Of a DNA stretch of 64,000 nucleotides, positions 30,169-56,500 are shown one piece after another (the first letter of the stretch is position 1; every line of letters starts with the position of its first letter). The notes under the pieces are model-generated. The model was not told the origin of the DNA, ran no database searches, and worked only from the letters and a program-made list of their open reading frames with translations. The stretch comes from Acidobacteriota bacterium. GTDB lineage: Bacteria > Acidobacteriota > Thermoanaerobaculia > Gp7-AA8. The translations under genes were made by a program, and so were the position numbers. The stretch is taken from assembly GCA_019244185.1 (NCBI GenBank), contig JAFATB010000006.1:160001-224000 (forward strand). Reading direction: 5' to 3'.

Positions 30169-30198
30169 GTCGCGCTAGGTATATATACCTAGCGCGAC
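30169..30198. promoter_or_regulatory. perfect 30-bp palindrome, probable operator 1
   Basis: GTCGCGCTAGGTATATATACCTAGCGCGAC. Confidence 0.8.
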
Positions 30199-30272
30199 AG
30201 GCAATCCGCTCCTCGCTCCGCCGCTCATGAGTTCATCATTCCTCGGCGACTGCTGAGCCCCATGCAGGTCTG

Positions 30273-30302
30273 GTGCTCCTAGGTATATATACCTAGGAGC
30301 AC
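30273..30302. promoter_or_regulatory. perfect 30-bp palindrome, probable operator 2
   Basis: GTGCTCCTAGGTATATATACCTAGGAGCAC; shares an 18-bp core with operator 1. Confidence 0.8.
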
Positions 30303-35924: not shown

Positions 35925-36435
35925 GAAGGCGCGAGCGGTCCTCGCGCAACTGGAACAGACCACCGACGTTCCACGCGACGAGACTGCAGCTGCCTTGCGC
36001 GAGCTCATCGCGCTTGCCGAGGGTGTCTTCGAAGACCTCGACGACTGCAACACCAGAATCGCTCGTGCGGCGAAGGCAATCGGCGCGACGGGTTGTCCGG
36101 TGGATCAGCTGAACGCCGTGGTGCGCTACACCGAGCGCGTGGCACCGCACTTTCGCTACATCGCGGCTTCCGGTGAGCTGATTCACCGGCAGCGTGACGA
36201 GAACGGACTTCTGTCAAGCGAGTTTGTCGGGCCTATCGAGATCCGCCGTAATCGCGACGGTTCGCTGGATGAAGTCGTCGCGCAGAACGTGTTCGTCCAC
36301 CTGGAGCAGATGGCCGACAACTCGTGCTGGATGGGCGTCAGCACGTCCGACAACGCACATCTCATCCACGTCAACTTCTACTCGGATCGAGCAATCGAAG
36401 CGGAAGCTGAGGATCAGCATGCGGAGGAAGAGTGA
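35908..36435 (+). CDS. phage-like hypothetical protein
   Basis: ATG 35908; LDEVVA..VHLEQM....WMG motif. Confidence 0.55.
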   Translation: MSGTIEKARAVLAQLEQTTDVPRDETAAALRELIALAEGVFEDLDDCNTRIARAAKAIGATGCPVDQLNAVVRYTERVAPHFRYIAASGELIHRQRDENGLLSSEFVGPIEIRRNRDGSLDEVVAQNVFVHLEQMADNSCWMGVSTSDNAHLIHVNFYSDRAIEAEAEDQHAEEE

Positions 36436-36443
36436 TTGCCTTT

Positions 36444-37399
36444 TTACTTCTTCTTCGGAATCGTGCAGTCGAGAACAACCGGCGTGATGAAGAAGCCCTG
36501 CGGCCGGAAGTCCTCGGCCTGACGGGAGAGATGCGCCTCCATCTCCTCACGCGACCAGGAGTGGCACTGCTTCTTTCGTCCGTCCCCATCCGTCCAAGCT
36601 GAGGCACCGAACCAGGCCACGAGATAGATTCCGAATGGCGACGTCGAACTGCGCAGGTATTTCTCAACGAGCTGCGTTTCCATCGCGGTCGGCAAGTCGG
36701 TGTTCCAGCACCCCTTGACCTCGATCGTAACCACCAGCTTCGGATCGAGGTCGCGTCGCACGCCGCGCCCCACGGCTTCGATCTTGATGTCGGTGAAGAA
36801 ACGGTCGAAGACCTCCACTTCCTTGTTGGTGACCAAGTGCGGAAGCGCCAAATCGTCGTTCAGGAACCTGCGAATCCAGTCTCGAACTGCTCCCTCGTCC
36901 TTGGGTTGATCGTCATCCCACAGATACTTGGCCGTCGGGTCCTCGCTGTGTAGCTGCGCCTGCAGCCGCTGAAGCGACTCGATCACGACCTCCACGAGTC
37001 GCTCCGCATTCTGCACAACGCGGTTTCTTCGATCTGTCGCCAGCGCGAACAGCTCTTCCGGAGCGGGCGGAGTCCACGAATGCGTCTGTCGTTCCTCCTC
37101 CGCCATCATGATGAACTGGTCGTGAATGCGGTTCGGAAACGCGGCTTGGATGCGCCGCAGTTCGTCGACCCTTCCACGCTTGCGGAGAACGTTCAGCACC
37201 TCACTGATCGCGAGGCCGACCTGAGACTCCAGGCCCAGCTCCTCCTGCGCGCGACGCGTGTACAACCAGATCACGAGGTCAGCGATCTCGGAGTCTTTCA
37301 GCCTCGCGATGAATTCGCTGATTTGATCGGGGCCGAGGAGCGATTCGATGAGCTCCTGGCCGGTGTCACCGGCGATACGAACAAACGGCCACACCGACG
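36444..37399 (-). pseudogene. 3' remnant of a large protein with C-terminal REase-like domain, truncated by the IS
   Basis: E..TDI...IEVKGCWN...QLVEKYL...GIYLVAWF; reading frame runs into the IS left IR. Confidence 0.7.
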
Positions 37400-37466
37400 G
37401 GTGGTGGTTTACTTTGAACCTTTACTTGTAACAGGCCACGCGCCAGTTACAACCTACATTGAAACG

Positions 37467-37607
37467 TGGGTGGTGCCACCGTGGGAGTAACCCAGACATG
37501 CAGATGGGAACGTGGAGGTTTGGCTTCACCTGCGCTCGGCTCAAGACCGAGCCGCACCAGACCCCACCACACAACCCGTCCGCTCTTGCAATCGGTGGCA
37601 CCGCCCA
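37467..37607 (+). ncRNA. candidate structured RNA, unit A
   Basis: 15-bp closing stem (one U-G), 5' mini-hairpin, long nested stem; no convincing ORF. Confidence 0.55.
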
Positions 37608-37630
37608 ACCTTGAGACCTACATTGGAGAT

Positions 37631-37760
37631 GGGGAGCGTGCGCATGAGTTAACCAGACTCAGACACTGAGCGGAGCGAGAGGTTGGGCACGCACCGGATT
37701 CCAGACCCGGCAGCACCCAGCGCTCGCATTACCCGTGTTTTGGCAATGCGCACGTTCCCC
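37631..37760 (+). ncRNA. candidate structured RNA, unit B
   Basis: 15-bp closing stem (one G-U); same architecture and same ACCTACATTG leader as unit A. Confidence 0.55.
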
Positions 37761-37773
37761 GACCTCAACCTGT

Positions 37774-37947
37774 TTACTTTCTGGATGGGTCCGGTTTGGT
37801 ACGTCGCTTGCTCTTTGGGAGGGCAGCGCGTTGACGTAGCACATCCCGGTCGGACACCGGTTTCGGACCAGTTTCGGTGTGTTCGATTACTACATCCAGA
37901 ACAGCGCGTGCTGCCTTGATCGGATCACCCCGTGATTTCGACTTCAT
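37774..37947 (-). CDS. small basic passenger protein
   Basis: GAGG RBS, ATG 37947. Confidence 0.45.
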   Translation of the reverse strand: MKSKSRGDPIKAARAVLDVVIEHTETGPKPVSDRDVLRQRAALPKSKRRTKPDPSRK

Positions 37948-38248
37948 TGGTTCCTCGCTCACAGTCTGTAATTCTGTCTTCGAGCACGCTCAACCAGTCT
38001 TCCAAATCGTTCAACCTTGCTCCCAGACTGCTAAGCCGGGCTTCCAAACGGTACTGTTCTTGTTGTTTGTCCGCTGACTGGATCGATGCATGTTCTACCC
38101 ATAACCAAGCAAGCCACAACATCACGCCGGTTGTCAGCATGAACAGCGAGGCCAGCTTGCCTAGATAGATCAACTGCCTGCGACTGGCAGCAAACACCAC
38201 AACCGCCACCACACCGCACAGCACGTACACCCACCAGCGCGCCCTCAT
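37925..38248 (-). CDS. 2-TM membrane protein with coiled-coil tail
   Basis: ATGA overlap with the lipoprotein gene. Confidence 0.6.
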   Translation of the reverse strand: MRARWWVYVLCGVVAVVVFAASRRQLIYLGKLASLFMLTTGVMLWLAWLWVEHASIQSADKQQEQYRLEARLSSLGARLNDLEDWLSVLEDRITDCERGTNEVEITG

Positions 38249-38547
38249 GGCGTCGCCGCCACACACCTGAACTGCACCTCCGCCTTTGGATAGTTGCCGA
38301 ACATGTACGGTGAATGACCGGTGAGAGTGTTCACCACCTGTAACATCTTCCCGTGTTCCGCGCAGAACCGACTCGCTTGCAAGGTGATGTCGGCAGTAAT
38401 CGAGTCTGAACCGATAAACCCTGTGGCTCCACGCTTATAAATCCTGTACATGTCCGTGCCGGGCAGCGCAACCACGCCCGTGGTTGAGCCGCATCCCGCG
38501 AGCATCAGCACGGCCTTTGCCACCATACGACGAAAGTGACGGTTCAT
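38245..38547 (-). CDS. small lipoprotein
   Basis: GGAGG RBS; LAGC lipobox; A..FC...GK and FRC motifs. Confidence 0.75.
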   Translation of the reverse strand: MNRHFRRMVAKAVLMLAGCGSTTGVVALPGTDMYRIYKRGATGFIGSDSITADITLQASRFCAEHGKMLQVVNTLTGHSPYMFGNYPKAEVQFRCVAATP

Positions 38548-38636
38548 GCGGTTTGCCTCCATTCGCTCTGATACCCATAGAATGGATACCGAAAGCATGG
38601 AAAGCAAGCGCTTAACACGAACAACACTTTCGCCGA

Positions 38637-38882
38637 ATGGCGGCGCGGAGCCCAGCGGTACAGTTAGTTGGAGCACGATTGAGGGAGTTGCGGAAGTCTC
38701 GCGGACTCTCACAGGAACAACTCGGCCATCTATGCGGACTCGACCGTAACTACGTCGGTCAAATCGAGCGAGGCAACCGCAACCCTTGTTTGGACAACAT
38801 CGTGAAACTGGCAAAGGCGCTCGGCGTAACACCCGCAGACCTGTTCAGCCGGTTCGACCTCGACACGATGAGGGATGTATAA
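38637..38882 (+). CDS. XRE-family HTH regulator (C-protein-like)
   Basis: GLSQEQLGHLCGLDRNYVGQIERGNRNP. Confidence 0.9.
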   Translation: MAARSPAVQLVGARLRELRKSRGLSQEQLGHLCGLDRNYVGQIERGNRNPCLDNIVKLAKALGVTPADLFSRFDLDTMRDV

Positions 38883-39008
38883 GGGGAATGGGGGTAACTG
38901 GGGCGCGTCCGAACCGCGCTGATGGGAACCGAAGTAGGCGTCAGTTTGTGGAACTGACCAGCCACGCCTCTCAGTACCTGTGACACCAGTTGCCCCCATT
39001 CCCCTTAT
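38879..39008 (+). ncRNA. candidate structured RNA, unit C
   Basis: 23-bp closing stem (one U-G) around 84 nt with internal hairpins. Confidence 0.55.
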
Positions 39009-39152
39009 CGTTTGAATCCCACCTCGGCGCGTGTATGCCCACGGCAACAGCGCCATCAACCACTACATTCCTGTGGAATACCACCGATCCGGCCATCCGA
39101 CCGGTGTCAAGTCTGGCGTATCCACGTTACGACTCACATTGTAGGTAAGCAT

Positions 39153-39963
39153 ATGAGGAGACTGCCTAAATCCACCCGCACCAGAATTCTTGCTGCTCTC
39201 GTCGAAGGTAATTCCATTGCATCCACCTGCCGACTGGTGGGTGTGGCCAAGCTCACCGTACTGCGGCTACTGGAGGAAGTCGGTGAAGCGTGTACGGCAT
39301 TCAGCGACCGGTTCATTACCGGCATTGAATCGCCGCACGTACAGGTGGACGAGATGTGGGGGTTCTGTCAGCAGAAACAGAAGAACGTATCCCCGGAGAA
39401 TGCGGGCGTTCTGGGGTATGGCAACGTCTGGACCTACATCGCAATAGACTCACGGTCCAAACTGGTAATCACGTGGCGTGTGCGGGCATCGTAACGAGCA
39501 GACCACACGTGACTTCCTGCATGACTTGGCGTCCCGGCTGACTGGACCCGTTACGCTCTCTACTGACGGGTTCATGGGATACGTCAATGCGATACCGGAA
39601 GCGTTTGACGGAACGCTGAACTACGGGGCTGTGGAGAAACTGTACGAGCGTAACCGGTACGTCGGTGCGAACTACACGAACCGAGTGGGAAACCCGTCGA
39701 AGATATCCACGTCCCTCATCGAGCGCCAGAACCTCACGGTGAGAATGTCAAACCGGCGCATGACGCGCAAGACGAACGGTTTCTCGAAGAAACTGTCCAA
39801 CCACATCTACCAGCTGGCAATCAACTTCGTCTACTACAACTTCGTCCGCACTCACGCCACCATCAAGACGACACCAGCGCTTGCAGCCGGGATCATCGAC
39901 TACCAGTTGTCGCTTGCCGATATGACCGAGTTGGCAATCTGGAGCGATGTGCAGGCGGCGTAA
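39153..39963 (+). pseudogene. IS1-family transposase (HTH plus DDE), frameshifted near 39480
   Basis: VQVDEMW, WTYIAID, TDG, IERQNLTVR, RKTNGFSKK split over two frames. Confidence 0.85.
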
Positions 39964-40003
39964 ACAGGCACAATTACGCAGGCTGTCCCAATGGTCGGTA
40001 CCG

Positions 40004-40076
40004 TTGCGGGATTTACACTCCCGGTAGGCTCGCTGCCGTTGCCAGCGATGGGGTTCAACTCCCACAGCCTCCGCAA
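40004..40076 (+). ncRNA. tRNA-like (T-arm-containing) structure
   Basis: GGG-TTCAACT-CCC arm, 5-bp/7-nt arm, AGGCT/AGCCT and TTGCGG/CCGCAA pairings. Confidence 0.4.
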
Positions 40077-40084
40077 ACCCAGTC

Positions 40085-40231
40085 TAACAGGTGGGGTGAG
40101 TGGAACCATCCAAACTCGCGGTGACGACTACTGCTTGCGGGACGACTTTCCGAACGTCGGCGGCAGTTGTACGTCTGTGACACTTTGGCGAACGGATTTG
40201 GTTTGGATGGTTCCACTCACCCCACCTGTTA
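40085..40231. ncRNA. candidate structured RNA, unit D (perfect 31-bp inverted repeat, 85-nt interior)
   Basis: TAACAGGTGGGGTGAGTGGAACCATCCAAAC at 40085-40115 and its exact reverse complement at 40201-40231. Confidence 0.55.
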
Positions 40232-40267
40232 TGTGCAGACTGCGTTATTTGCTATACTCTCAACCCC

Positions 40268-40594
40268 ATGACGGTCGAAGAGATACGCGTACAGAAAGCA
40301 CTGGCGATGTTGGAAGTGGAAGAGGCCGAGACCGCCCACGCTGCTGCCAGTGAGCACGCCCACGAGTTGCAAGTGGCAACTAGTGAGGCGATCAGTACTG
40401 CCCTCGATATTGCCCGTCGTTTGCCTGTGCAGGTGGATCGACTGCGCGAGACGTTGGCAGGGATTGATCTGGACGGGCTGTCAGAGGCACAGACGCAGGC
40501 CGAACGGTTTCTTGGTGCCGCTGCGGCCGCCCGAGTGAAACTGCGCGAGTTTCAACTACCCGGACGACCTGTTACAAGTGGATGGGGAAAGTAA
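40268..40594 (+). CDS. helical passenger protein; stop lies within the right IR
   Basis: TATACT -10-like element just upstream; A/E-rich helical ORF. Confidence 0.55.
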   Translation: MTVEEIRVQKALAMLEVEEAETAHAAASEHAHELQVATSEAISTALDIARRLPVQVDRLRETLAGIDLDGLSEAQTQAERFLGAAAAARVKLREFQLPGRPVTSGWGK

Positions 40595-40747
40595 ACCAGT
40601 ACCCGATAACCTGCACCGGTGTGAGTTGGCCGCGTTCGGCCGCAACGTGCATTGTAGCGACGGCAATCTCTCGCGTTTTCAGATACCAAACCCAGGTCTA
40701 TCGGTGAAGATCATCAAGGATGATGACCGTCGAACGCCCACCGGTAT

Positions 40748-44050: not shown

Positions 44051-44521
44051 TTACTTAACGGTATTTTCGTCCCAGGCCGCGTTGAAAGCGCGATGCAGCA
44101 AAGGATCATCCGGCCCAGTAGGCAACCATCCGTCCCTGACGTCCGATGAATTGAACCACTGCCATACACGATGGCATTGCTCCTCATAATACTCGCCGAC
44201 AAGGGTCATCCAATCTGAAAATGCTTGGACTCGGGCGTACTCGGCGCTTGAGTCACCGCGCCAACCATCGGGCAGGTACTCGCGCAGAAACCTAGACAAG
44301 GTATCGACTGCGAATGCCCGCATGTCGTCTGACATTTCCGCTTCCTCTTTCAAGAGGAGCTTCAACTGAATCGGCGCCACGGAACTTGAGAGAACCTCAA
44401 TCATCTGATCGAAGGTTTCAGTTCGATGCGACCGAGCAAATTCTGTCGCGCTGCGGTATCCAAGTGCACGCACCCTCGACCGCAATCGTTCGTGCCAGTC
44501 GCCATCCCAAACGTTTGTCAT
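44051..44521 (-). CDS. cognate immunity protein of the giant Rhs toxin
   Basis: ATGA overlap with the Rhs stop; WxGDW..RL..RVR..G and GWLPTGPDDPLL motifs. Confidence 0.8.
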   Translation of the reverse strand: MTNVWDGDWHERLRSRVRALGYRSATEFARSHRTETFDQMIEVLSSSVAPIQLKLLLKEEAEMSDDMRAFAVDTLSRFLREYLPDGWRGDSSAEYARVQAFSDWMTLVGEYYEEQCHRVWQWFNSSDVRDGWLPTGPDDPLLHRAFNAAWDENTVK

Positions 44522-47500
44522 TGTCGAAATGGGACAAACGAGCCTGAAAGGCCATAGTCCCTCATCATTTGCTTGCCAACATCGAAAACTTCAGCAAACG
44601 TCAATGCCCGCCCAAGAAGCTTTTCGCGCTGCGAGATGCGGGACATGATCTGTCGATTCCATTCGCCTTCCCATTTGCGACCAAGGCGATAGTTCCCGCC
44701 TCCGTGAATGGCTTGATGAATCGCTTCGTCCAACTCCAGAGTAAACTGATCAATATCGCGACCCCCTGTGAAACCACGGACCTCAAAGAACGCTCGAAAT
44801 TCTTGAGGAAAAACATGGTGACGAGGATTGCGGACCACGCCGGCACCGCGCGCGCCAGTCTCAGTCACCGCATCCGATTCTGGGCCCTCCCCCAAGGAAT
44901 CGTGCACTGAACTCGCGAGCACAATCGTCGAGACCATCGGGCCACTTCGTGCGCTACGCGCGATCACTCCCGCCGTGGGCAATACTACTCCCGAGCTTGT
45001 CGCAAGTGCCGGTGCAGGAGTTGTCGGCGTGTTCATCGCGGACACTGTCCCGCGCACAGCTGTATAGCCATCAAGCAACGCTGGTGCAGCCGCGCGTGCT
45101 ATGTCTTCTTTGCATCCACTGCTCGAAGCGGCGTCGATTGCCTTTACTCGCTTGTCAACCGCGCCTCCAATAACATATACTGGCGTACCTTCGCCACGTT
45201 CGACAGCCGCGATGGCAAGTGACAGGCTGCGTCGTTCCTGACGACGAGCGTCTGCGGCATTCTCATGCACCCATCCCCCATACCCGAATGTTAGGGTATC
45301 GATGAGTTTCACAGTTTGATCCCCACCAAAGTTCATGAATCCGACGAATGCACCCTTAGCCCATTGCCAAGCGCCCTCCCCTGCCGCTTGTAATGATGCA
45401 AGCGTTGTGTTCTTGCATGGCTTCTGCAGCCCTGAAGGGTCTCGATCATTTACGGGGTCGCCCCCAGCGAAGGTATAAAGGTTTGAAGCGTCGACGTACC
45501 CCAGCGGATCCGGCGACAGGAACGCCCCCCGCCCCGCATCAAACCAGCGCTCCCTCGCGAACACGAGTCCCGTCCCTACCTCCTCGAACGGCAAGGCCTG
45601 GAACGACGACATGAGGATGCTGCGACCCACTGCCGGCTCCGCTGGTGAGCCCAAGGCGGCGAGGGAGGGGGCGGCGTAGGGGGTGGTGGTGGGGTCGGGG
45701 GCGGCGAGGAAGGACGTGAGCGTCGCGAGGGACGCGCGGTATTCGACGGGGAGGGTGGGGGAGGTGTGGATGGGGTGGGCGGTGGTGGCCCAGGTCGGGG
45801 GCGGGAGGATGGGGGTGGCGGTGGACCACGCTTTGGCGCGGAGGGTGTTGGTGACGGCAATCGAGAGCGATTGGACGTCGCCGGTGGGGGACGTGAGCGC
45901 GGTCCACTGGGTGGGGGTGAGGGTCCAGTGGATGGTGTTGGGGTCGGAGAGCGTGGAGGTGACCGTCGCGGTGCGGACGACGTTGCCGCTCGCGGTCACG
46001 GCGGCGAGGCGGGTGCCGGTGGCGAGGGTGGCCTCGTCGAGGGCTTCGGTCGAGCGGATCGAGACCTCCACGGCCGTGAGGTTACCACTCGCGTCTTTGG
46101 TCTTGCTCAGCGTGATGCGATCGATGGCGGCGCCGGCGAGGCTGCTTTCTTCTTCGCCGTAGGCGCCGTCGACGACGGTGCGGGAGATGACTTTGCCGTC
46201 GTCGCCGAGGATGAGCTGGAGGTTGCCGTTGCCGGCTTCGTCGAAGACGGGGTAGAAGTGATGCACGTCGGGCGTCACGCCGTCGGTCACGGTCACCTCG
46301 AGCGGATCGTCGTAGGCGGCGTCGCCGTGGATGAGTTGGCGGAGAAGACCTCCGTTGGCGTCGACGGACGGGTTCGCGCTCGCGCCGGCTTTGTAGACGG
46401 AGACGAGACGGTCGGAGATCGGGTCCCACACGAACGTCGTCTCGGCGGGCAGGCCGTCGGCGAAGAGGACGGCGTCGCGGTTCTCGAGCTTCCAGTCGCT
46501 GTCGAGCGGCGGCATGGAGATGGAGCTCAGCTGCGCATACTCGACGCGGCGGCCGACGATGCGGTTGCTCGCGGCGTAGTCGTAGCGGAAGCGGCGGATG
46601 GTGAGTGACGGCGTCGGGATTTCGGTCGCGGTGATGATGCGGCCGCGGTCGTCGAACTCGTACTGATAGCGGCCATCACCCGTGCGCTCGGCGCCGATGT
46701 AGGTGAACGTGTGCGACTCGCCGTTCGCGGCCACGGTGCCGATGCGGTGTCCGGACAGCTCGTCGAAGTTGAGCGTCGGCGGCGCGGCCGGTTCGACGGA
46801 CGGCGACGGACGCTCGAGCTGCGTGCGGAAGCCGGCGTCGGTGACGTGCTCGATCGACGGATTGCTGCTGTCGTCGTGCGCGGTGACGGTCGTGAGCAGA
46901 CGGCTGCGCGCGTCGTAGGAGTACTCGTTGAAGCGTGTATCGGCGGAGATGCCGAGGAGCTGCTCGCGTTTGATCTGCACGCCGTCGTACGTGATGGCGG
47001 AGCCGCCGACGACGTTGCCGCCGGCGACGATGCGCAGCTCGGAGAGCTGTCCCGCGTTCGCGGTGTCGTAGGTGTACTGACGCTCGATGACGGCCGACGC
47101 GCTCGTCGTCAGCGTACGCACGTTGGGGCGGCCGGCATTGCGGTAGTCGGCGGTGAGCAGCGGCATCGGCGACGGCGCACCGATGAGCGTGCGCGTCATC
47201 GCGCTCACGTTGCCGGCGGCGTCGTGGCTCTCCCCTACCTTCTGCGTCCATTGCGTCGCGCTGGTGGGAAAGCCGCTGTAGGACGGCATCGTCCACGACT
47301 CGCGTTCGCCGTGCACGTTCCAGGTGTGATCCTGCTCATAGGAATCGAGCACGGTCGCCGAGCCGAAGCCGGAGTGATCCTTGAAGCGCGTCTGCTTCGT
47401 GCGGCGCGGGCGATCCTCGAAGTCGTAGTCCTCGAAGACGAGCGCGGCGTCGCGCGTGCGCCATGTGGTGATGCGGCCGGCGGCGTCGTAGTCGAGCTTC

Positions 47501-50500
47501 TCGATGAGCTCTCCGCCGTTGCGGCGGATCTCGGTGAGCTGGTTCTTGTCGTCGTAGGTGTAGTTGAAGAGGCGGCCTTGGCGGTCCTTCATCGACGCGA
47601 GGCGCGAGCCGTCGTAGGTCCAGGTCTCCTGCGTGCCGTCGGGATAACGGCGGACGCTCGGACGGCCGAGGAGATCGGACTCGGTCGTTTCGGTGAGGCC
47701 GGTGCCGGTGCCGCCGTCGGACTCGTCGCGATACGACGTGTCGGTGCCGGCGGCGTGATAGCCGTACTTCACTTCGGGGGCGCCCGGCTCGCGTTTCGAG
47801 AGCAGGTTGCCGCGCGCGTCGAAGTGCTGCCTCGTCGACTCGCGCGCGGGCGGCGCGTCGGCGGTGACGTTGCCGTCCTCGTCGTAGCTACGCTTCCACT
47901 CGAGCGCGCCGGCCTGGTTCCGCGTCGGATTGCCGAGCGTGTCGTAGTCGTACTGCATGTCGATCGGCGAGGTCGCGCCGCGCTCGGTGAGCGTGCCGTT
48001 CTTGACCATGCCGCCGGTGTAGTCGGAGGCGAGGTACTTCGAGAACTCGGTCGTGATGGTCGACGTCGTGCCGGCGCCGGCGATCGAGGACTTGAGGCGT
48101 CCCGCGTCGTCGAAGGCCTGCTTCGCGGCGCGTCCGCTGACGGCGGTCGACGTGATGCGGCCGGCGCCGTCCCACTTCATCTCGCTCTCGCGCGTTTGCG
48201 TCGCGTCGACTCTCGTCTGCGCCGACGTCATGCGGCCGTTCGGCGTGTAGCTCGCCTGCGACTCGCCGATGAGCGTGCCGACCGCGTCGTAGGTCTTGAT
48301 GCTCTTCGGGTTGCCCCAGTCGTCGTAGTCGGTGACGGTCTTCACGCCGTTCGGCGCGAGCGACGCGGTGGCGCGGCCGTGGACGTCGTAGGCGACGGCA
48401 CTCGCGCTGTGGTTGTCGGCCGAGTAGACGAGGTTGCCCGCGAGGTCGTACGCGTACTGTTCGACGATCGGCGTGCCGCCGGTGGTCGTGGTGCGCTTCG
48501 CGACGCGTCCGAGTCCGTCGAGTTCTTCGGTGACGACGGCGCCGCCGGGCAGCATGCGCACGATCTTGCGATTGGTGAGGTCGTAGTCGGTCGTGGTGGT
48601 GACGGAGGTGAGGCTCTCGCCCACCGCGACGTTGTTCGTCGTCGACTGCTTCACGCGACCGAGCGGGTCGTACGCGAGCGACGTGGTCACGGTGTGGGCG
48701 TCCTGCTTGTGCGTGGTCTCGGTGAGGCGTCCGTTGAGGTCGTACTTGGACGACTCTTCGAGCGAGAGCGACGGGCCGGTCGTCACGCTCGACACCGGAC
48801 GGCGCCAGCCGTCGAGGTTCGTGAGCGTCGAGACGCCGCGCTCCTCGTCGACCTTGATCTGATCCGGCCCCGGATACGCGAACTTCGTCTGCAGGCCGGA
48901 GGCATCGACGAGCTCCGGCATCGCGCGCGCGTACTCCGGCGCGGTGGCGTCGCGGAACTTGTAGCTGACCGATGCGTTGCCGCCGGCGTCGGTGCCGCCC
49001 GTGCTCGTGACGGTTTTCGGCTGGCCGTACGCGTCGACTTCGACCGTCGTCGTGATGGCGTCGTTCGTGGCCGCGACGCTCTTCTTCATCGCACTCGGCT
49101 CGGAGGTATGGATCGTGTCGCTGCCGATGCTGACGCTCTCGAGATACGCGGGACGCGGATTCGACGACGCGTCGTCGTAGCCGAAGGTCCGCTTGATCGG
49201 CGTCGCGCCGCTGCCGCTCGTTTCGCTGGTGAAGAGCACGAAGCCGGGCGCGCCAGGCTCAATCGATTTGTAGGTGTTCGTGGTCGTGCGGATCGTCGCG
49301 CTCGTGGCGCCAATGCCGGAAAGCGTCGCCGTCTCCAGCATGCCGTCGGGCACATACGTGAAGAGCATGCGCCGCGTCAGCGACTCGGTCGGCGCGCCGG
49401 ACGGCGTGACCGCGGCCGGCAACGTGCCGAACGGCGTCGTCACCGCGGCGACGTTCGTCTCATCGAGCTGCCTCACGTGCGCGCGGTCGGTGGTGTAGTT
49501 GCCCGGCTGCGGCGTGAGCTCGTAGACGCGCTCCTGGCCGAGAACGTCTTTGGTCGTGGTGTGCGTCGCGTCCGTGTAGGTGAACGTGGCCGACTCGCCG
49601 GTCTTCCACGTCTGCGTCTTCACCTTGTCGCGATCGCTGGTGCTGTACGCGAACGCGACGCGCGGACCCTCGCCCATCGGATCGGTGATGGACGTGAGGT
49701 TCGGCGCGAGCTCGAGCTTGTCGTTGTACGTCGATGCGGGCGTGCCGTAGCCGTATTGCGTAGTCGGACGTCCGGTGCCGGTCTCCGGCAGCGTCGCGGT
49801 GATGAGGCGGCCCGCGTCGTCGTAGTCGTAGTCGACGCGCCCGAGCCAGCTTTCGATCGACTGCAGGCGTCCCGCTTTCAGTCCCGTGCCATCGGGGAAG
49901 TACATGAGGCGCGACACGCGGCCGACCGGATCGATGACCTGCGCGAGGCGGCCGCTGAGATCGTAGAGATAGCGGACGACGTTGCCGGCGTCGAGCGCGT
50001 ACGCGTTCGGCGCGAACTCGTCGGTCTCGTGCACGAGGCGTCCCATCGAATCGAACGCGCTGATGCGCGCCTTCTGATCGACGAGCACCCAACCACGATC
50101 GGTGCGCGAGAGCTTGAGGAAGAGTCCCTTCGGACGCTGGTAGAAGCCGGTGGCGTTGTCGAGCGTGAAGCGCCAGATCTCGCCGGCGCCGTCGCGATAT
50201 TCGACGTCGCCGTTCGGCAGCGCGCGCAGGCGGCGGAAGATCGACGACTCCCACCCCATACCGACCGTGCCGCCGATCGTGCGCGAGCGATACGTGCGAT
50301 CGAACAGGGCGTTCCAGCCGTTGCGGCCGCCCGCATCCATGTCGAGCGCGGAGGTCTCGACTTCGCCCGAATGGAGATACGTCGTCTCCTGCAATGCGCC
50401 GCCGGCTACGGGAGGCGCCTGCGCGGCGACGAGCACGCTCGGCGGACGCACGGTGTCGGCCATGATGGTGGCAAAGCGCGCGGTGAAACGGTTCTCGCGT

Positions 50501-53500
50501 CCGAGGTAGGCGTAGCTCGTGCCGGTGAAGACGTTTTGCGCGCAGTCGGTGCCGGCGATGCAGAGATCGGGGCGGATCGAAATCAATCGGCCGTTCGTGT
50601 AGAGCTCCCACACGCGATCCGCTTCGGTCTTGCCGGCGAGATGCGGCGGGCGCGCACACGACGAGCAGCCGCTCGCGGTCTGCAGCGCGGCGAGCGTGGT
50701 GCCCGCGGGCGGCGTCGGCCACTGATAGTTGATGCTGGCGCGCGGATCGGCGATCGCGACGATCCACGGCGAGACGAACTTGTTGAAGCCTTTCTGATGG
50801 CGCAGCTGCGCGGCCATCGAGTCGGGCACGACGCGCTCGAGATAGAAGTTCGCGTCGGCGCGCGGATCGGGCGCGCCGGAGCGATCTTTCAGACGCAGAT
50901 GCGCGCGCGGGAAGCCTTCCGGCATCTGCTCGGTCGTCGCGCCGAACACGCGCTCGCTCTCGATCGCCGCGACGAGCTTGTTCGCGCCGCCGCTCAGCGA
51001 CTGCGTCATCGCACCCGGCAGCGACACTTCGACGCGGAACGCGGCGAGCGAGCCCTCGGGACCTTTGATGACGCCCGCGGGCGGATCGACGCCGAGCGGC
51101 ACGAGGCCGCCGACTTCCGCGAGACCGTTGCCGTCGCCGACGTCGGCTTTCAGCTGCACGCGCGGATCGATGGCGGCGATGACGCTGGTGGTCTTCTCCA
51201 GCACTTTGCCGACGTAGACGTAGCCGGTGTCGGCGTCGACGACCGGCGCGAGCGTGCCCGACGTGACGCCGGGCGCGGACTTCCAGACGATGCGCGGATC
51301 GTCCGCGCCGACGCCGTACGTGCCGCTACCGTACGTTGCAGTGGACGCGAGCGACGCGGCCACGGTCTTGAAGAGCGCGTTCGCGGGCAGGAGATTGCCC
51401 GTCGAATCGAAGCGTTCGTCGATGCGCGAGAGATCGACGAGCAGCACGCGACCTTCGCCGTCGACGACGGTGGCGAGGTTCGTGCGCGGAATCGCGCGCA
51501 CTGCGGCGGCGCCGCCGGGGATCCAGATGATGTCGACGAGATGCGCGTTCGCAAGCGGGTCGTACGACGGCACCATCGTCGGCGGCGTGCCGCCGATCTC
51601 GACGACGAGCAAGCCGTACTCGTAGCCGGGGACGAGCATGTAGTCGCGCACGACGCGCGTGCCGGCGGTCGAGCCGCGCTGGCCGCGCGGCGGCGCGCCG
51701 GTGACGGACGTGCCGCTGAGCGCCTTGTTGTCCTGCGCCTCGAGCGTCCAGTGGTAGTACGCGGCGCCGGTGAAGCGCGGCGTGGGCTGGCGTCCCGCGG
51801 CTTCCGCGAACTTCGCGCGGAACGGCACGAGGCGCGGATGATCGTGGACATTCGTCGCGGGAGGATCGCCGGGCGTGAAGTAGGTGTTGCGCAGCACGAG
51901 ACCGAACTGCGCGCGCTCGCCGCACGTGTCGGCGTCGCTCGGCGCCGCGGCTTCCGCATCGTTCGCGGGCGGCGCGATCTTCAGATCGAGAATGCCGCGG
52001 CGCTGATCGACGGCGAAGATGTCGAGATCGGGCGAGCCGTCGCGCGTGATGATCGTGGCGTCGGGCGAGAGCGTGAGATCGGGGATGGCGTACGTGTCGA
52101 TCGGATCGCCGCACTCGCTGCGCAGCGCCGCGTTGGTCGCGCGGATCTGCTCGCGCAGCGGCTTGTAGTTCGCGGGCCGCGTCGGATCGTCGTTCGATTC
52201 GACGGCGTTCAAATCGAACACGGCGACGCCGTAGCCGAACAGCGAGATGACGCCGTACGTGCGCTGGTTGCGGATGACGTGGATGCGGTCGTTCTTCCGC
52301 GCGACGATGCCGTTGATCGCCGCGGGCACTCCCGGATGCGCGTCCGCCGACCAGCGCATGTCGAGCGTTTCGTTCTCGACCGTGATGCGCTGCAAGCGAT
52401 ACGGATAGCCTTCCGACATCGCCTGCTGGACGTTGAAGACGCTGAGGTCGTCCGCGTCCGCCGTGGGATCGAACGCGAGCGTCAGATCCTCCGTGTCGTC
52501 CTGCAACAGAATCTGCATCTTGCGCGGCAACGCTTCCGCGCGATCGCTGAGGATCGTCGCGCTGGCGAGATCGAGACCGACCGTCGAGCCGACGCGCCAG
52601 CTGACGATCGCGCCCGCTTTGCCGGTTACCGCGCGCGGGCCCGGCGTGCCGTTCGGCAGGAAGTCTTCGAGGCGGAACGAGCGGACGATGCCGAAGAGAC
52701 CCGAGAGCGCGGTCGCGTAGACGCGGCCGTGACGATCGCTGGCGAGCGCCCAGTATTCGTCGCCGCCGCCCGCCGCGACGCCGATCGGCTGCGTCGACGC
52801 GCCGAGCGACGCGGGGTCCGCGACGTCGTACGCGACGACGCCGCCGTCGAGCGCGGTCATGAGCAGCACGTTGCCGTTGAGCGCCTGATCGCGGATCGCG
52901 CCCTTCGTGAGATCGAACGACGAGACGAGGCCGCCCGGCTCGCGCACGCGGAAGTAGAGATAGACCGGCTCGGCGAGCGGCGCGGTGGGACCGCTCTCGC
53001 CGAGGATCTGACCGATGCGCAGACCGGACTGGTCTTCGACGGTGCTGGCGATGCCGAGGCGATAGCGCATGCCGCGTTGCAATGACGCGGGAAGATCGAC
53101 GAGCACGCGGCGTCCGCCGGAGTCGACGCGGAAGTGCGCCTGCTCGGTGACGGCGGTGTAGACCGGCGCGGCGGCGGCAGGCTCTTTCGCGATCTCGACG
53201 CTGAAGCGCGTGCGGAGGTACGCGTCGATCGCGTCGTCGGATGCGTCGGAGCCGACGGCGATCGGCTCGCTGAAGACGACGGAGAGCGAGGTGTACGGAT
53301 CGACTTCCTTTTCTTCGACGAGCAGCAGCACGCGATCGCCGAGCGCGCCCGCGACTTTCAGCCCGTCGCTGCGCTTGCGGTCGATTGCGCCGTTCGTGAC
53401 GTTGAAGAGCGTGACCTGCAGATCGGCCGGCAGCGGCGTCGACGAGTCGACGGCGGTGATCGAGTCGCCCTCGAGCTTGACGACGAAGTTGCGGATCGAG

Positions 53501-56500
53501 ACGGGCGTGTCGCTGGCGATGAGGTCGAGCGTTTCGACGCGGAACGGCGTGCCGTACACGGGATACGGACCTTCGCGATCGGGATTCGGATTCGGAAGGA
53601 TGGCGGCGGCGCCGGGATCGCCGTTCGGAATCGGATCGTAGACTTTCGCGAAGCCCTGCAGTCCGGTCGCGGCGTCGACGCCGACGACCTGGAAGGGCTT
53701 GTTCGTCAGGACCGGAATGGCGATCGTGCCGCGCCGCTCGGCGAGATAAAAGTGCGCGGCGTAGAGCGACTGGAGCGTGTCCCAGAAGAGGTCGTAGCCG
53801 GCCTGCAGGCCGGTCATCGCGCCCCACGCGACGGACGAGCCGTCGGGCACGCGGATGTCGAGGACGGAGTAGACGCCGCTGCGGTTGACGCCGAGCAGGT
53901 AGTTGCGCAACGCGGAGCCGGTGAGCACGGCGTTCGACGTCACGGCGCGTTTCTGCGTCGTCTGCTGCGTGCCGGACGTCGCGTCGGCGGTGACGAAGCG
54001 GCCGTTGTCGACGCGAACGCTGTCGACGATCATCACGCGCGGACCGCGCACGGAGAGTCCGAGGTAGCCGAGAAGGAAGTTGCGATTCGCGGTGTCGGTG
54101 CCGGCGGGAACCGGGAGCTCGACGTCGAGGCGCTTGTTGGCGACGCCGTCGAATTTCAGCTCGAGGCTGTTCGCGTAGCGCAGCTCGTCGTCGAAATGCG
54201 GCACCGCGGCGAACGCGGTCTGCTGACTCGGCGTCAGCGTGACCATCGTCGCTTTGTCGAACGCGCCCGCGGGAACGCTGACGGTGAGGCCATCGGGCGT
54301 CGTGTACTTCGTATCGAGATCGGCGGGCGCGAGGAAGCCGCGGCCGTCGTCGGTGATGAACGGCGTGAGGCGGAGGATCGCGATGATGGCGTGACTGACG
54401 GGATCGAGAACCTGCAGATCGATGATGTCGTCGACGCTGATGCGGTCGCGCGCATCGAGATGGCCGGCGTCGAACGCGAACGAGCCGTCGGCGGCGACGG
54501 TGGCGTCGTAGGTGACGACGAAGAAGTGATTGCGGCGCACGGCCACGGCCTGAGCGCCGCCGGGCAGCGCGCCGGCGGTACCGCTGATGCGCGACTTGCC
54601 GTTCGCGTCCGGAATGGTGATGTGAATGCGGTCGGCGTGAATCGTGGCGTTCGACGGCGTGGCGCGCGTCGAGAAGGTCGACGTGGAGGTCTGGCCGAAC
54701 GGCGTGCCGGTGGTCGAACGGATCGTCGGCAGCACCGCGATCGCGTACGTCGACGCCGCGCGCAGCGGATCGGTCGCGTTGAAGCGGACGCTGTTCGCGC
54801 CGCCGAGGGAGACCGTGCCGGCGAGCGGCGCATTCGTGGTGAGGTTCGTGACACGGATGCCGTTCGCGACGGACGCGGCGTCGATGGACGTGTCGAACGT
54901 CGCCTGGACGACGAGCGGCGCCGTGACGTCGAGCTCCGCGCCGTCGGCCGGAGCGATGGCGGTGAGATGCGGCGGCTGCGCGGAAAGCGTGAGCGCGCCG
55001 AAGTCGACGAAGGTGTCGGGATCGGGGCTGCCCGTGAAGGCGGATGCGGCGCCGTCGCCGAGCGCCGCGGTGCGCGCCACGAGCGAGAACGGCGCGGCCG
55101 GTTTCGCGGCGACGGGGATGACGAAGACGCCGTCGATGCGCGTGAGATCGCGCACGCCGAGAACGGAGGACATCGGCGCGCCGATGCCGGAGGTGACGCG
55201 CGCGTTCGCGACCGCGGCGCCGCCCGCGCTGCGCACGGTGCCGAAGGCGTATGCGATCGGCGCGTCGGCGACGAGGACGACGTAGCGGCCGTCCCGAACG
55301 ACGCCGTCGAGCGGCAGCTGCGTCGAGACGATCGGGCGCGAGACGAAGACGTTGGAGGTTGACGACGACGATGCCGACATCAGGGCCACGACGCGGAACA
55401 GCACGCCGAACGGCGTCGATGGGAGCACTTCCGCGACGATGACCTGCGCGTTCGCGCTCGCGGACGGCACGGCGATGGTGACGCGCGCGGGCGTGAGGAG
55501 CGCTGGCGCGTGGATCGCGACGCCGTCGGTGGGCGGCGGCTCGTTCGCGCGCGTGAGGCTGAAGGTGAAGCCGGCGGCGACGCGGAAGCCGGGCACGGCG
55601 CCGAGCGACGCGAGCTCGTTGTCGGAGAGCGAAGTCACGGAGGCGTGCAGCGGCTCGGGGGTGGCGGCGGCGGGGACGTCGAGGAGCACGTTGCCGTCGC
55701 CGGGGACGCGGCCGCCGTCCGCGCCCAGGAGCGTGCCGCGGTCGATGCGGCCGGGATAGTCGACGATGCGGATGTGATCGACGCCGTCGCGAAGGATCAC
55801 CGCCTGCGCCTGCGCGGTCGGCGCGAGGTGGAAGTCGGCGACGCCGTCGGTGCCGGCGAGATTGCGATAGATGAGGAGGTCGGTCGCGAACGGCGGATCG
55901 ACGAGCGTGCGGCCGTCGGCGAGGTTGAGCTGCTCGTCGATGAAGGCCTGCACCGCGGTGCCGCTCGGATACGGCTTCGCGCCGTCGGTGGTCAGCGTGG
56001 CGACGGTGCGGCCGCTCGGCAGCACGGCATTCGGATTCAGCGTGAACGAGCGGCCGGTGAGGCGGCAGGTATCGGGCGTGGTGAGGCACGGATTGGCGAC
56101 GCCGGTGAGCGCGGCGCCGGCGCGGGCGACGAGGCTCGAGTTCTTGTCGGCATAGACGAGCGCGTAGTTGCCGGCGGCGTCGATGTCGAAGGACGCGCGG
56201 CCGTCGGAGCCGACGTTTGCGGCGGGGACGACGACGCGCCATTCGTCGGCGCCGCTGTCGTAGTGCACGAGCGCGAGCGACTGCGCGGCGGCGGTGATCG
56301 CGTTCGCGTCGACGACGAAGGTGAGACGCGCGCCGGGCAATGCGATCGGTGACGACGCGTCGTCGATGGCGATCTCCGCGGACGCGAGCGGCGCCCAGCC
56401 GAGCGGCAGAAGACCCGCCAGCGACTGGCCGCCGACGGAGGTGAGGCGCACGCGGTGCGTGCCGGCGAGCGACGTCACGGCGAGCGCGAGCTCGACGCGT

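Follow-up and report, generated by a model that had tools for sequence, protein, structure and literature searches.

Which role long non-coding hairpins can have inside an insertion sequence (IS) is the question raised by a locus of an Acidobacteriota genome (GenBank assembly GCA_019244185.1), which was analysed within a stretch of 64,000 nucleotides (contig JAFATB010000006.1, positions 160,001 to 224,000), called the window in the following. Insertion sequences are usually viewed as carriers of a transposase, with a few protein genes added in the passenger-carrying members called tIS, which are described for several IS families (PMC7986276). At positions 37400-40603 of the window, the load is mostly folded non-coding DNA or RNA. 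The original prediction saw here an IS1-family transposon with an array of four structured RNAs of similar length and layout, named A to D, and a tRNA-like fold, and proposed a mobile cassette of small RNAs serving as decoys, regulators or guides. This observation was confirmed in part, and its interpretation was supported in part. The element is a tIS of the IS1 family in which structured non-coding sequence fills most of the spare room, and between its genes three kinds of non-coding structure are well supported, namely the A/B pair, the C and D repeats, and the tRNA-like element.

The assignment to the IS1 family is based on the transposase and on the element ends. For the C-terminal piece of the transposase, 600 relatives were identified at E <= 1e-3 (of 617 candidates), mostly proteins of 250-280 aa with PF03400, many of them labelled IS1 family; the nearest relative (P0002) shares 70% identity. 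An alignment of the relatives revealed invariant D..TDG..E-region columns, and the direct match to the Pfam model DDE_Tnp_IS1 is weak, with 21.6 bits vs a cut-off of 24.1. The predicted terminal inverted repeats were found again, with 38 nt and 79% complementarity, and the end pattern TGGTNTANTTT..GTAACAG is present at both ends of the element. When the pattern TGGTNTANTTT-N10-20-GTAACAG was derived from these terminal repeats, it was found in five of 35 genomes of the genus, with no hit for the reversed pattern as a control, and a looser end pattern delimits five further elements of the genus, 1.1-6.2 kb in size (Table 1). The transposase relatives, the weak Pfam match and a type of terminal repeat that also bounds other elements thus uphold the predicted IS1-family element with passengers. 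One of the five, L029, is located in the same genome; its 3.7 kb with transposase and passengers lie between the two copies of an 8-bp target duplication, GGAAGTAT, which shows that transposase and passengers move as one unit. L029 contains an XRE gene, a HicB-like open reading frame (ORF), a 166-nt hairpin and two tandem tRNA-like genes, and its transposase gene is also frameshifted, at another place than the copy in the window. With the terminal-repeat pattern in a loose form, a metagenome scan gave 118 stretches, from which 80 loci were kept (L128-L207); eight of these 80 retained the fuller end motif, and L177, at a contig end, alone resembles this IS family.

In L029 and in two further related elements, L020 and L021, a sigma-70-like promoter (TTGACA/T .. 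TATATT-like) is shared before the transposase start. It overlaps two copies of TGACCNNTCAAGCAT, one of which lies in the perfect palindrome TTGACCGGTCAA; the TGACCNNTCAAGCAT/TTGACCGGTCAA block of the relatives is probably an operator.

It is well supported that the copy in the window is a decayed, immobile copy of such a tIS in a horizontally acquired defence island. Both transposase pieces are collinear with the intact 293-aa transposase of a related element. Neither an intact frame nor the classical IS1 -1 frameshift was identified in the window copy; its second piece lies in the +1 phase, and the relatives are single ORFs. Short-read contigs from three DNA runs, which may themselves be the source of the assembly, reproduce 36400-40114 without any difference, the frameshift included, so that the frameshift is not an assembly slip. 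The alignment also showed that the promoter-like block with TTGACCGGTCAA, located directly before the transposase start in the three relatives, is missing in the window copy. The frameshifted transposase and the missing promoter/operator block are the basis for the conclusion that the copy is decayed. A target-site duplication of 8-9 bp is not present around it (the flanks, ..caccgacg and cgataacc.., have CG alone in common), and only one full-length copy of the element exists in the genome. The GC content of the element is about 57% vs 67% for the genome. The surrounding island (20000-45000) has 59-62% GC and codes for Schlafen/AlbA_2, JAB-ThiF, AP2-domain, HEAT-repeat and RHS-repeat proteins and for an IrrE-like peptidase with a helix-turn-helix (HTH) domain; by this protein set it looks like a defence island.

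Over one third of the element does not code for protein, and the four hairpins and the tRNA-like fold account for more than half of this part. The long closing stems of A to D are as described in the original prediction (Table 1), and A, B and C each have one stem mismatch, which is indeed a G-U on the + strand (3/3). The proposed fold comparison with dinucleotide shuffles, 200 for each unit and strand, gave z-scores of -6.0 (A), -5.7 (B), -7.1 (C) and -10.5 (D) on the + strand and of -3.9, -4.3, -6.1 and -11.1 on the - strand, and none of the eight folds was equalled by any shuffle. C and D take the first two ranks among the inverted repeats of the surrounding 28 kb (18000-46000), and at a minimum of 15 nt and 93% matching, A and B are the only other pairs with separated arms, besides one palindrome which occurs twice. 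The contigs of four DNA runs contained the identical sequence only and no form lacking a hairpin; at D, the De Bruijn contigs of three DNA runs break. Among the public runs, no RNA dataset holding the element is listed.

Two claims about the hairpins as a group were not borne out. A multi-stem layout had been attributed to all four units. However, when the closing stems were left out, the interiors of C (z -0.5, 51 of 200 shuffles as good) and D (z -0.4, 65 of 200) folded like shuffles on the + strand, so that a multi-stem layout is not shown for C and D. The interior of B is marginal (z -1.9, 9 of 200), and the interior of A is the sole outlier, with z -3.6 on the + strand (1 of 200) and z -1.2 on the - strand. 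The units also do not form an array of four like members: A and B align with a z of 7-8, every other pair among the four reaches at most 2.5, and C and D are unlike A and B and lack interior structure above chance.

A and B are, as is well supported, homologous tandem elements of about 135 nt whose three-way-junction fold was kept by compensatory changes. Their semi-global alignment lies 7-8 standard deviations above shuffles (0/400), with an unremarkable score in strict local alignment (75/500 shuffles). A covariance model built from A alone recovered B with 36.6 bits (E 3e-6 for the window), and C and D with about 17 bits, which is the level of any long hairpin. In the model-fitted alignment, which comprises two sequences only and is fitted to the structure, 94.5% of 91 cells are paired, and 15 of the 47 pairs have changed on both sides, eight in the closing stem and seven across five inner helices. 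Sliding the 3' partners by 1-3 columns reduced the both-side changes to 0-2, and none of 500 shuffles matched the observed values. The closing stems of A and B differ at about 10 of 15 positions; kept in both are the unpaired blocks ACCTACATTG, GAGT(T)AACC(C)AGAC, GCAAT and the 7-nt apical loop YUCMAGA. This is good evidence that the A/B fold is a selected structure. Divergence of the stems together with conservation of the interior blocks implies a constraint on pairing and not on terminal repeats bound by a transposase; it is the opposite of what is expected for the terminal repeats of a miniature inverted-repeat transposable element (MITE). The structure is most likely read on the + strand, as indicated by the G-U mismatches in the stems, by eight G-U vs two A-C cells in the shared structure, and by the interior of A, which is stable on the + strand only. 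The original interpretation is upheld in this respect, as A and B behave like a selected structured element.

The same changes bear on the possibility that the hairpins are neutral by-products, arisen as inverted duplications or quasi-palindrome corrections in a decaying element and kept by correction from arm to arm. Most positions differ between A and B, but all six helices were kept, with seven of the both-side changes outside the closing stem, and arm-to-arm correction is no explanation for changes in the inner helices. For the element as a whole, its ongoing decay and the lack of any function-linked feature would be in line with by-products, as would the nearly perfect, lineage-specific repeats described below for C, D and L029. 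A neutral origin is considered improbable.

Outside the element, nothing similar to A to D was identified. BLAST searches gave no second copy in the own genome and none in 61 related genomes; among 401 genomes of the phylum none was present either, since the 25 matching genomes (the own one and the unpublished G205 included) matched with the transposase core or the XRE gene only, and plasmids and phages were likewise without copies. The 4227 covariance models of Rfam 15 gave no match in the whole window at gathering score, so that no known family could be assigned to A to D, and at E <= 10 the region 37300-40700 gave only a match to the model for selenocysteine tRNA (tRNA-Sec) and three chance-level ones, with nothing for A to D. 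Nothing specific was found with the A/B covariance model in the 35 genus genomes, where the best match (G023), which scores alike on the two strands (35.2 and 34.0 bits), is a generic GC hairpin, and 100 loci around IS1 transposases (926 kb) gave no match. Related elements of the same IS family do not contain A to D. Of the outcomes which the original prediction had named as speaking against it, one, a lack of covariation or conservation in related elements, was found in part, with A to D absent from the relatives and nothing similar elsewhere; another, stems belonging to scattered families of repetitive extragenic palindromic (REP) sequences or MITEs, was not found. The lack of second copies gives no support to REP or MITE families, and none to conservation either. 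A and B are credible as a new structured element without known relatives.

A complex fold kept by compensatory change, with unpaired blocks kept as well, would also be expected of independent small RNA genes, so that A and B, possibly joined by C and D, might act in trans as + strand regulators, decoys or protein partners and form a common cargo with the tRNA-like element. The block ACCTACATTG is placed at an equal distance before A and B and contains a possible -10 box, TACATT, the stem mismatches are biased to G-U on the + strand, and relatives of the IS family carry RNA genes: tRNA genes with 56-61 bits on RF00005, and in L020 a DUF3800-VIII RNA (RF03075, 52.4 bits at a gathering score of 40.2), which lies at the end of a DUF3800 gene on the opposite strand and belongs to a motif class presented as being of unknown function (PMC5737381). 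However, no homologue of A or B was found in any of the collections named above, a sigma-70-like promoter was not detected by the scan, the interiors of C and D are unstructured, and a partner protein is not evident, as the genome is without RVT_1 and without Ro/TROVE proteins. Small RNAs acting in trans are therefore judged unlikely for the whole set; among the hairpins, this possible role fits A and B best. For guide RNAs, also among the roles proposed, nothing supports a part like that in IS110 or IS200/605; the transposase is of the ordinary DDE IS1 type and broken.

C and D are unrelated long inverted repeats, whose identity as RNAs is only putative. Their repeats are nearly perfect and hence young, and the interiors, which fold like shuffles, suggest that pairing alone would matter. 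No significant likeness of C, D and the L029 hairpin to A/B or to each other was obtained by alignment. The relatives carry tRNA-like genes at the place of C, but an origin of C by remodelling of such a gene was ruled out by local alignment (z <= 1.3). Both C and D are flanked by TA on both sides, and A and B are not; a match of two bases is possible by chance.

Comparable structures exist in the relatives. The L029 hairpin has arms of about 48 nt and lies between sense-strand genes, in the gap after the small ORF which follows the XRE gene. It is slightly stabler as antisense (-121.0 vs -115.5 kcal/mol sense) and single-copy in 35 genomes, and L020 and L021 lack it at the homologous gap. L020 contains a separate 90-nt hairpin with 28-bp arms. 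Long hairpins recur in this IS family, and each of them is lineage-specific and young.

For C, D and the L029 hairpin, such features could point to foldback or MITE-like insertions, which would have jumped into the IS in a donor that was not sampled and would have no function for it. Young repeats (23/23 with one G-T in C, 31/31 in D) around unstructured interiors, a TA on each side, as would be left by a TA-duplicating element, a hairpin in L029 that is absent from the corresponding gap of two relatives, and the foreign composition of the element are all in agreement with this. The host genome also contains foldback families of the same size class (100-200 nt). Against such an origin, A to D are single-copy in everything searched, as is the L029 hairpin in 35 genomes. 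Furthermore, when C is taken out together with one TA, the XRE frame stays open for more than 50 codons, so that C supplies the working stop codon, and in A and B the stems are the least conserved part, unlike terminal repeats bound by a transposase. Insertion of this kind is possible, with a low probability for the set and its best fit to C and D.

Two foldback families of 100-170 nt were recognised in the host on many contigs, one with CCTCCGGCGG (35 copies) and one composed of GAATGAAGAACGCAGAAC units (26 copies), and two smaller host repeat families were recognised by eye. A genome-wide count gave 189 hairpins of 100-200 nt overall length in which 15 or more arm positions match, and 61 of them belong to the two host repeat families. 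A threshold of 23 matched arm positions is reached by 12 of the remaining 128, and three of these 12 are located in the two IS1-type elements, which comprise about 6.9 kb of the 5.3-Mb genome; A and B are below the 23-position threshold. This concentration calls for a cause linked to the elements and is a further argument against neutral by-products.

The location of the hairpins is the basis for the interpretation which is tentatively favoured here, namely that A to D may be cis-acting + strand RNA hairpins that punctuate or insulate transcripts. All hairpins are placed in gaps between the units, the XRE stop codon lies within the first bases of the C stem, with which C begins, A and B follow closely on the left end, and in C and D pairing seems to be all that matters; the L029 hairpin, also in a gap between sense-strand genes, was counted for the same reading. 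A and B could stop or trap transcripts that enter the element from outside, C could uncouple the XRE gene from the transposase gene, and D, following the transposase gene and the tRNA-like element, could close this unit before the last ORF. The effects may be termination, processing by RNases and/or protection of 3' ends, for which pairing and not sequence would matter. Several results weigh against punctuation in cis. On both strands, all four stems lack a U-tract behind them, the scan for terminators gave three sites vs 3.3 expected with none at A to D, and no promoter-like site was found vs 1.6 expected. With 130-147 nt and interiors of 84-111 nt, the hairpins are oversized for termination, and the conserved interior helices and sequence blocks of A and B suggest more than a plain hairpin. 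The pair counts themselves come from two sequences in a structure-fitted alignment. As A and B are also downstream of the ORF pair on the - strand, a - strand role is possible for them, and the greater antisense stability of the L029 hairpin indicates that a + strand bias is no rule of the family.

The hairpins lie at the edges of passenger modules, at which related elements cease to be homologous. This position would also be compatible with DNA-level sites, at which hairpins extrude from single-stranded or supercoiled DNA and serve recombination, replication or the capture of cargo, similar to attC sites. A G-T wobble is tolerated in folded single-stranded DNA, so that the strand bias fits folded + strand DNA as well. 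The R boxes of attC sites have the consensus RYYYAAC and GTTRRRY, to which the outer bases of D, GTCTAAC ... GTTATGT, correspond in 7/7 and 6/7 positions. In contrast, A, B and C have no AAC...GTT boxes, the stems are continuous and lack the unpaired spacer and the extrahelical bases of attC, units of 130-147 nt with perfect stems of 23-31 bp are unlike known attC sites, and the element codes for no integrase, relaxase or replication protein. Sites of this kind are regarded as very improbable. The outermost seven bases of D (40085-40091 TAACAGG and 40225-40231 CCTGTTA) are the same as the innermost seven of the terminal repeats (37429-37435 and 40568-40574), which may be chance. When the terminal repeats were aligned to the interior of the element, scores remained at the level of shuffles, and on this basis it was ruled out that A and B contain internal copies of the IS end.

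The third kind of structure is a single element between the transposase gene and D. It is tRNA-Sec- or allo-tRNA-shaped as judged from its predicted fold. The shape claimed originally was thereby found again, at 39977-40073 and not at 40004-40076. In the minimum-free-energy fold, which is cloverleaf-shaped, the acceptor stem has 9 bp including one C-C mismatch, and the D stem has 7 bp and a loop of 4 nt. They are followed by a 5-bp anticodon stem with the loop UUUACAC and the anticodon UAC, a long variable arm of 6-7 bp, and a T stem of 4 bp (3 in the centroid). The same arms appear in the alignment to the tRNA-Sec model. The features of an allo-tRNA, an acceptor-T branch of 12-13 bp in an 8/4 or 9/3 arrangement, a long variable arm, and a long D stem with a 4-nt loop, are thereby present. 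The score on the model, however, is 27.2 bits (E 0.019) vs a gathering score of 47, in a genome where this model gives 20-48 bits to ordinary tRNAs and 71 bits to the real selC, and ARAGORN called no tRNA in the window. With a covariance model of its own, the element found no relative besides itself in 101 genomes and one chance-level match only in 90 loci.

In related elements, tRNA genes were identified at a recurring place. The terminal repeats of L029, L020 and L021 each enclose a tRNA gene (Table 1), which precedes the transposase gene by about 100-150 nt and shares its orientation, with the anticodon GCT or ACT according to ARAGORN; their short variable region implies that they are no normal tRNA-Ser. 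L029 has a second tRNA-like sequence beside its tRNA gene, and in L028 a tRNA gene is located upstream of the transposase in an element whose ends were not found. Among the best 80 IS1-family loci of other phyla, a tRNA was called at the same relative place and strand in seven (L041, L042, L045, L056, L060, L083 and L098), with anticodons beyond GCT and ACT; at four of the seven, the tRNA and the transposase gene both lie between IS1-type ends, which read GGTAGTG.. or GGTGGTG.. there. In 24 transposase-motif loci (20 from a phylum-wide search and four from a search for relatives), a tRNA was present in one only, L015, which belongs to the genus. An alignment of eleven such tRNAs unites them in one family, whose cloverleaf is kept by compensatory change at 18 of 21 pairs. 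In full-text searches, literature describing tRNA genes as part of IS1-family elements was not found, which is no proof of its absence.

The tRNA-like element could be the counterpart, in the window copy, of these irregular tRNA genes within the terminal repeats of the relatives. Taken further, this IS1-family lineage might be a vehicle for non-coding RNA cargo, consisting in the relatives of an irregular type-I tRNA gene (GCU, ACU and others) fixed upstream of the transposase in several phyla, and in the window of the allo-tRNA-shaped element together with A and B. In the setting of a defence island, such RNAs would have a function in trans: they might, for instance, replace tRNAs or serve as decoys where anticodon nucleases attack, or might recode; this extended proposal is itself rather doubtful. 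The tRNA cargo of this IS lineage is a wider and more testable lead than the hairpins. Provided that these RNAs are expressed, IS1-type elements would offer irregular tRNAs, possibly mistranslating or resistant to defence nucleases, a way to spread between phyla, and would provide a genomic home for the "irregular tRNA polycistrons", known so far mainly from soil metatranscriptomes. For the hairpins themselves the stakes are lower, as only A and B look selected and no relative is available to build on.

Table 1. Features of the IS1-type element in the window and of related elements and tRNA genes (positions refer to the sequence named in the second column)
Feature	Sequence	Position	Strand	Remarks
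IS1-family passenger-carrying insertion sequence (tIS)	window	37400-40603		3204 bp; terminal repeats, pattern in genus, single full-length match
Left terminal inverted repeat	window	37398-37435	+	30/38 complementary; element proper begins GGTGGTGG at 37400
Conserved block ACCTACATTG	window	37452-37461	+	5 nt before A stem; repeated at 37616-37625, 5 nt before B stem
Element A	window	37467-37607	+	15-bp closing stem, short 5' hairpin, long 3' arm (three-way junction); stem 37467-37481/37593-37607, 15 nt, 93%
Element B	window	37630-37761	+	diverged tandem homologue of A, same fold; stem 37631-37645/37746-37760, 15 nt, 93%
ORF, 108 aa, two hydrophobic helices and coiled-coil-like tail	window	37925-38251	-	ATG at 38251; listed GTG-start version 113 aa to 38266
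ORF, 101 aa, signal peptide and LAGC lipobox (putative lipoprotein)	window	38245-38550	-	translation read by eye
XRE / control-protein-like HTH regulator, 81 aa	window	38637-38882	+	divergent from the two - strand ORFs
Element C	window	38879-39008	+	23-bp inverted repeat around 84 nt, interior at chance level; stem 38879-38901/38986-39008, 23 nt, 96%
Transposase, N-terminal piece	window	39153-39494	+	113 aa, frameshift after ..ITWRV
Transposase, C-terminal piece	window	39478-39963	+	161 aa, +1 phase
tRNA-like element	window	39977-40073	+	tRNA-Sec model match, minimum-free-energy cloverleaf
Element D	window	40085-40231	+	perfect 31-bp inverted repeat around 85 nt, interior at chance level; stem 40085-40115/40201-40231, 31 nt, 100%
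ORF, 108 aa	window	40268-40594	+	family searches without match
Right terminal inverted repeat	window	40568-40605	-	element end at 40603
Related element	L029	4481-8184		3.7 kb; own genome, contig C6:476481-480184
Related element	L020	2935-9113/9224		6.2 kb; intact 293-aa transposase
Related element	L021	3231-7935		4.7 kb
Related element	L023	4596-6360		1.8 kb; truncated transposase
Related element	L032	1496-2600		1.1 kb; without transposase, 79-bp perfect ends, only small HTH-like ORFs
tRNA gene	L029	5720-5794
tRNA gene	L020	5725-5801
tRNA gene	L021	5529-5604
tRNA gene	L028	4327-4403

Of the predicted passenger proteins, the XRE regulator was confirmed by matches to HTH_3 (2.1e-17) and to control-protein models of restriction-modification systems (3.8e-22). 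The lipoprotein with its LAGC lipobox and the membrane protein with two helices are plausible, as judged from the translations by eye; searches with family models gave no match for either of these ORFs. For the last ORF of the element, no relatives were identified in 400 other genomes of the phylum except for one weak match. Elsewhere in the window, a single ORF of 6491 aa extends over 44518-63993 on the - strand, with its start at the last bases of the window, and 30169-30302 contains two copies, 104 nt apart, of the 18-nt perfect palindrome CTAGGTATATATACCTAG, each within a palindrome of 30 nt and operator-like.

Among the known systems, the element corresponds most directly to the passenger-carrying IS1 elements. 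The IS1 family reportedly includes, in the ISfinder summary, a long subgroup with passengers and has the end motif GGnnnTG. In agreement with such elements, the transposase shows collinearity with IS1-family proteins that a single ORF encodes (about 275-293 aa), the ends begin with GGT..TG, passenger ORFs are located within the terminal repeats, and the relative L029 has its 8-bp duplication. Different from them are the frameshift of the window copy, its lack of a target duplication, and a non-coding part of over a third.

As hairpins, A to D can be compared to processing sites and terminators and to REP sequences that stabilise 3' ends, a likeness based on the RNase III sites of phage T7 and on REP elements. 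All are stem-loops between transcription units whose sequence is unconstrained and whose action would depend on pairing. A to D differ from them by their length of 130-147 nt, by the missing U-tract and by being unique and not repeated, and A and B in addition by keeping interior helices and sequence blocks. An intrinsic terminator was rejected on the result of the terminator scan. With MITEs and foldback elements, the hairpins share terminal repeats of 15-31 bp, a short interior, a small total length and, in C and D, the TA flanks; in contrast to such elements, they occur as single copies in all collections searched, and the apparent terminal repeats of A and B are the least conserved part. 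An integron attC site was rejected likewise, since only D comes near to the R boxes and all four stems are continuous. The long closing stem made by the two ends, the short 5' hairpin and the long 3' arm of A, B and C resemble the msr-msd RNA of retrons. However, neither the element nor the 98.9%-complete genome contains a reverse transcriptase, and since RVT_1 was not found in the genome, a retron RNA was ruled out; the same holds for a Y-RNA-like identity, as no Ro/TROVE protein was found.

For the tRNA-like element, the closest known counterparts are the allo-tRNAs of Acidobacteria described by Mukai et al. 2017 (PMC5389517), which are 8/4 and 9/3 tRNAs with non-Sec anticodons, some of them with destabilised stems. 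In the same paper, allo-tRNAs are reported to adjoin transposon-related genes and toxin-antitoxin systems, and polycistrons of irregular tRNAs are reported, one kind of which has a GCU anticodon. Compared with the shape described there, the element in the window differs in its score on the tRNA-Sec model, which is within reach of ordinary tRNAs, and in the C-C mismatch of its acceptor stem. It shares with the allo-tRNAs the tRNA-Sec-like cloverleaf with a 9-bp acceptor and a short T stem, the D stem of 6-7 bp with its 4-nt loop, the long variable arm and a non-Sec anticodon.

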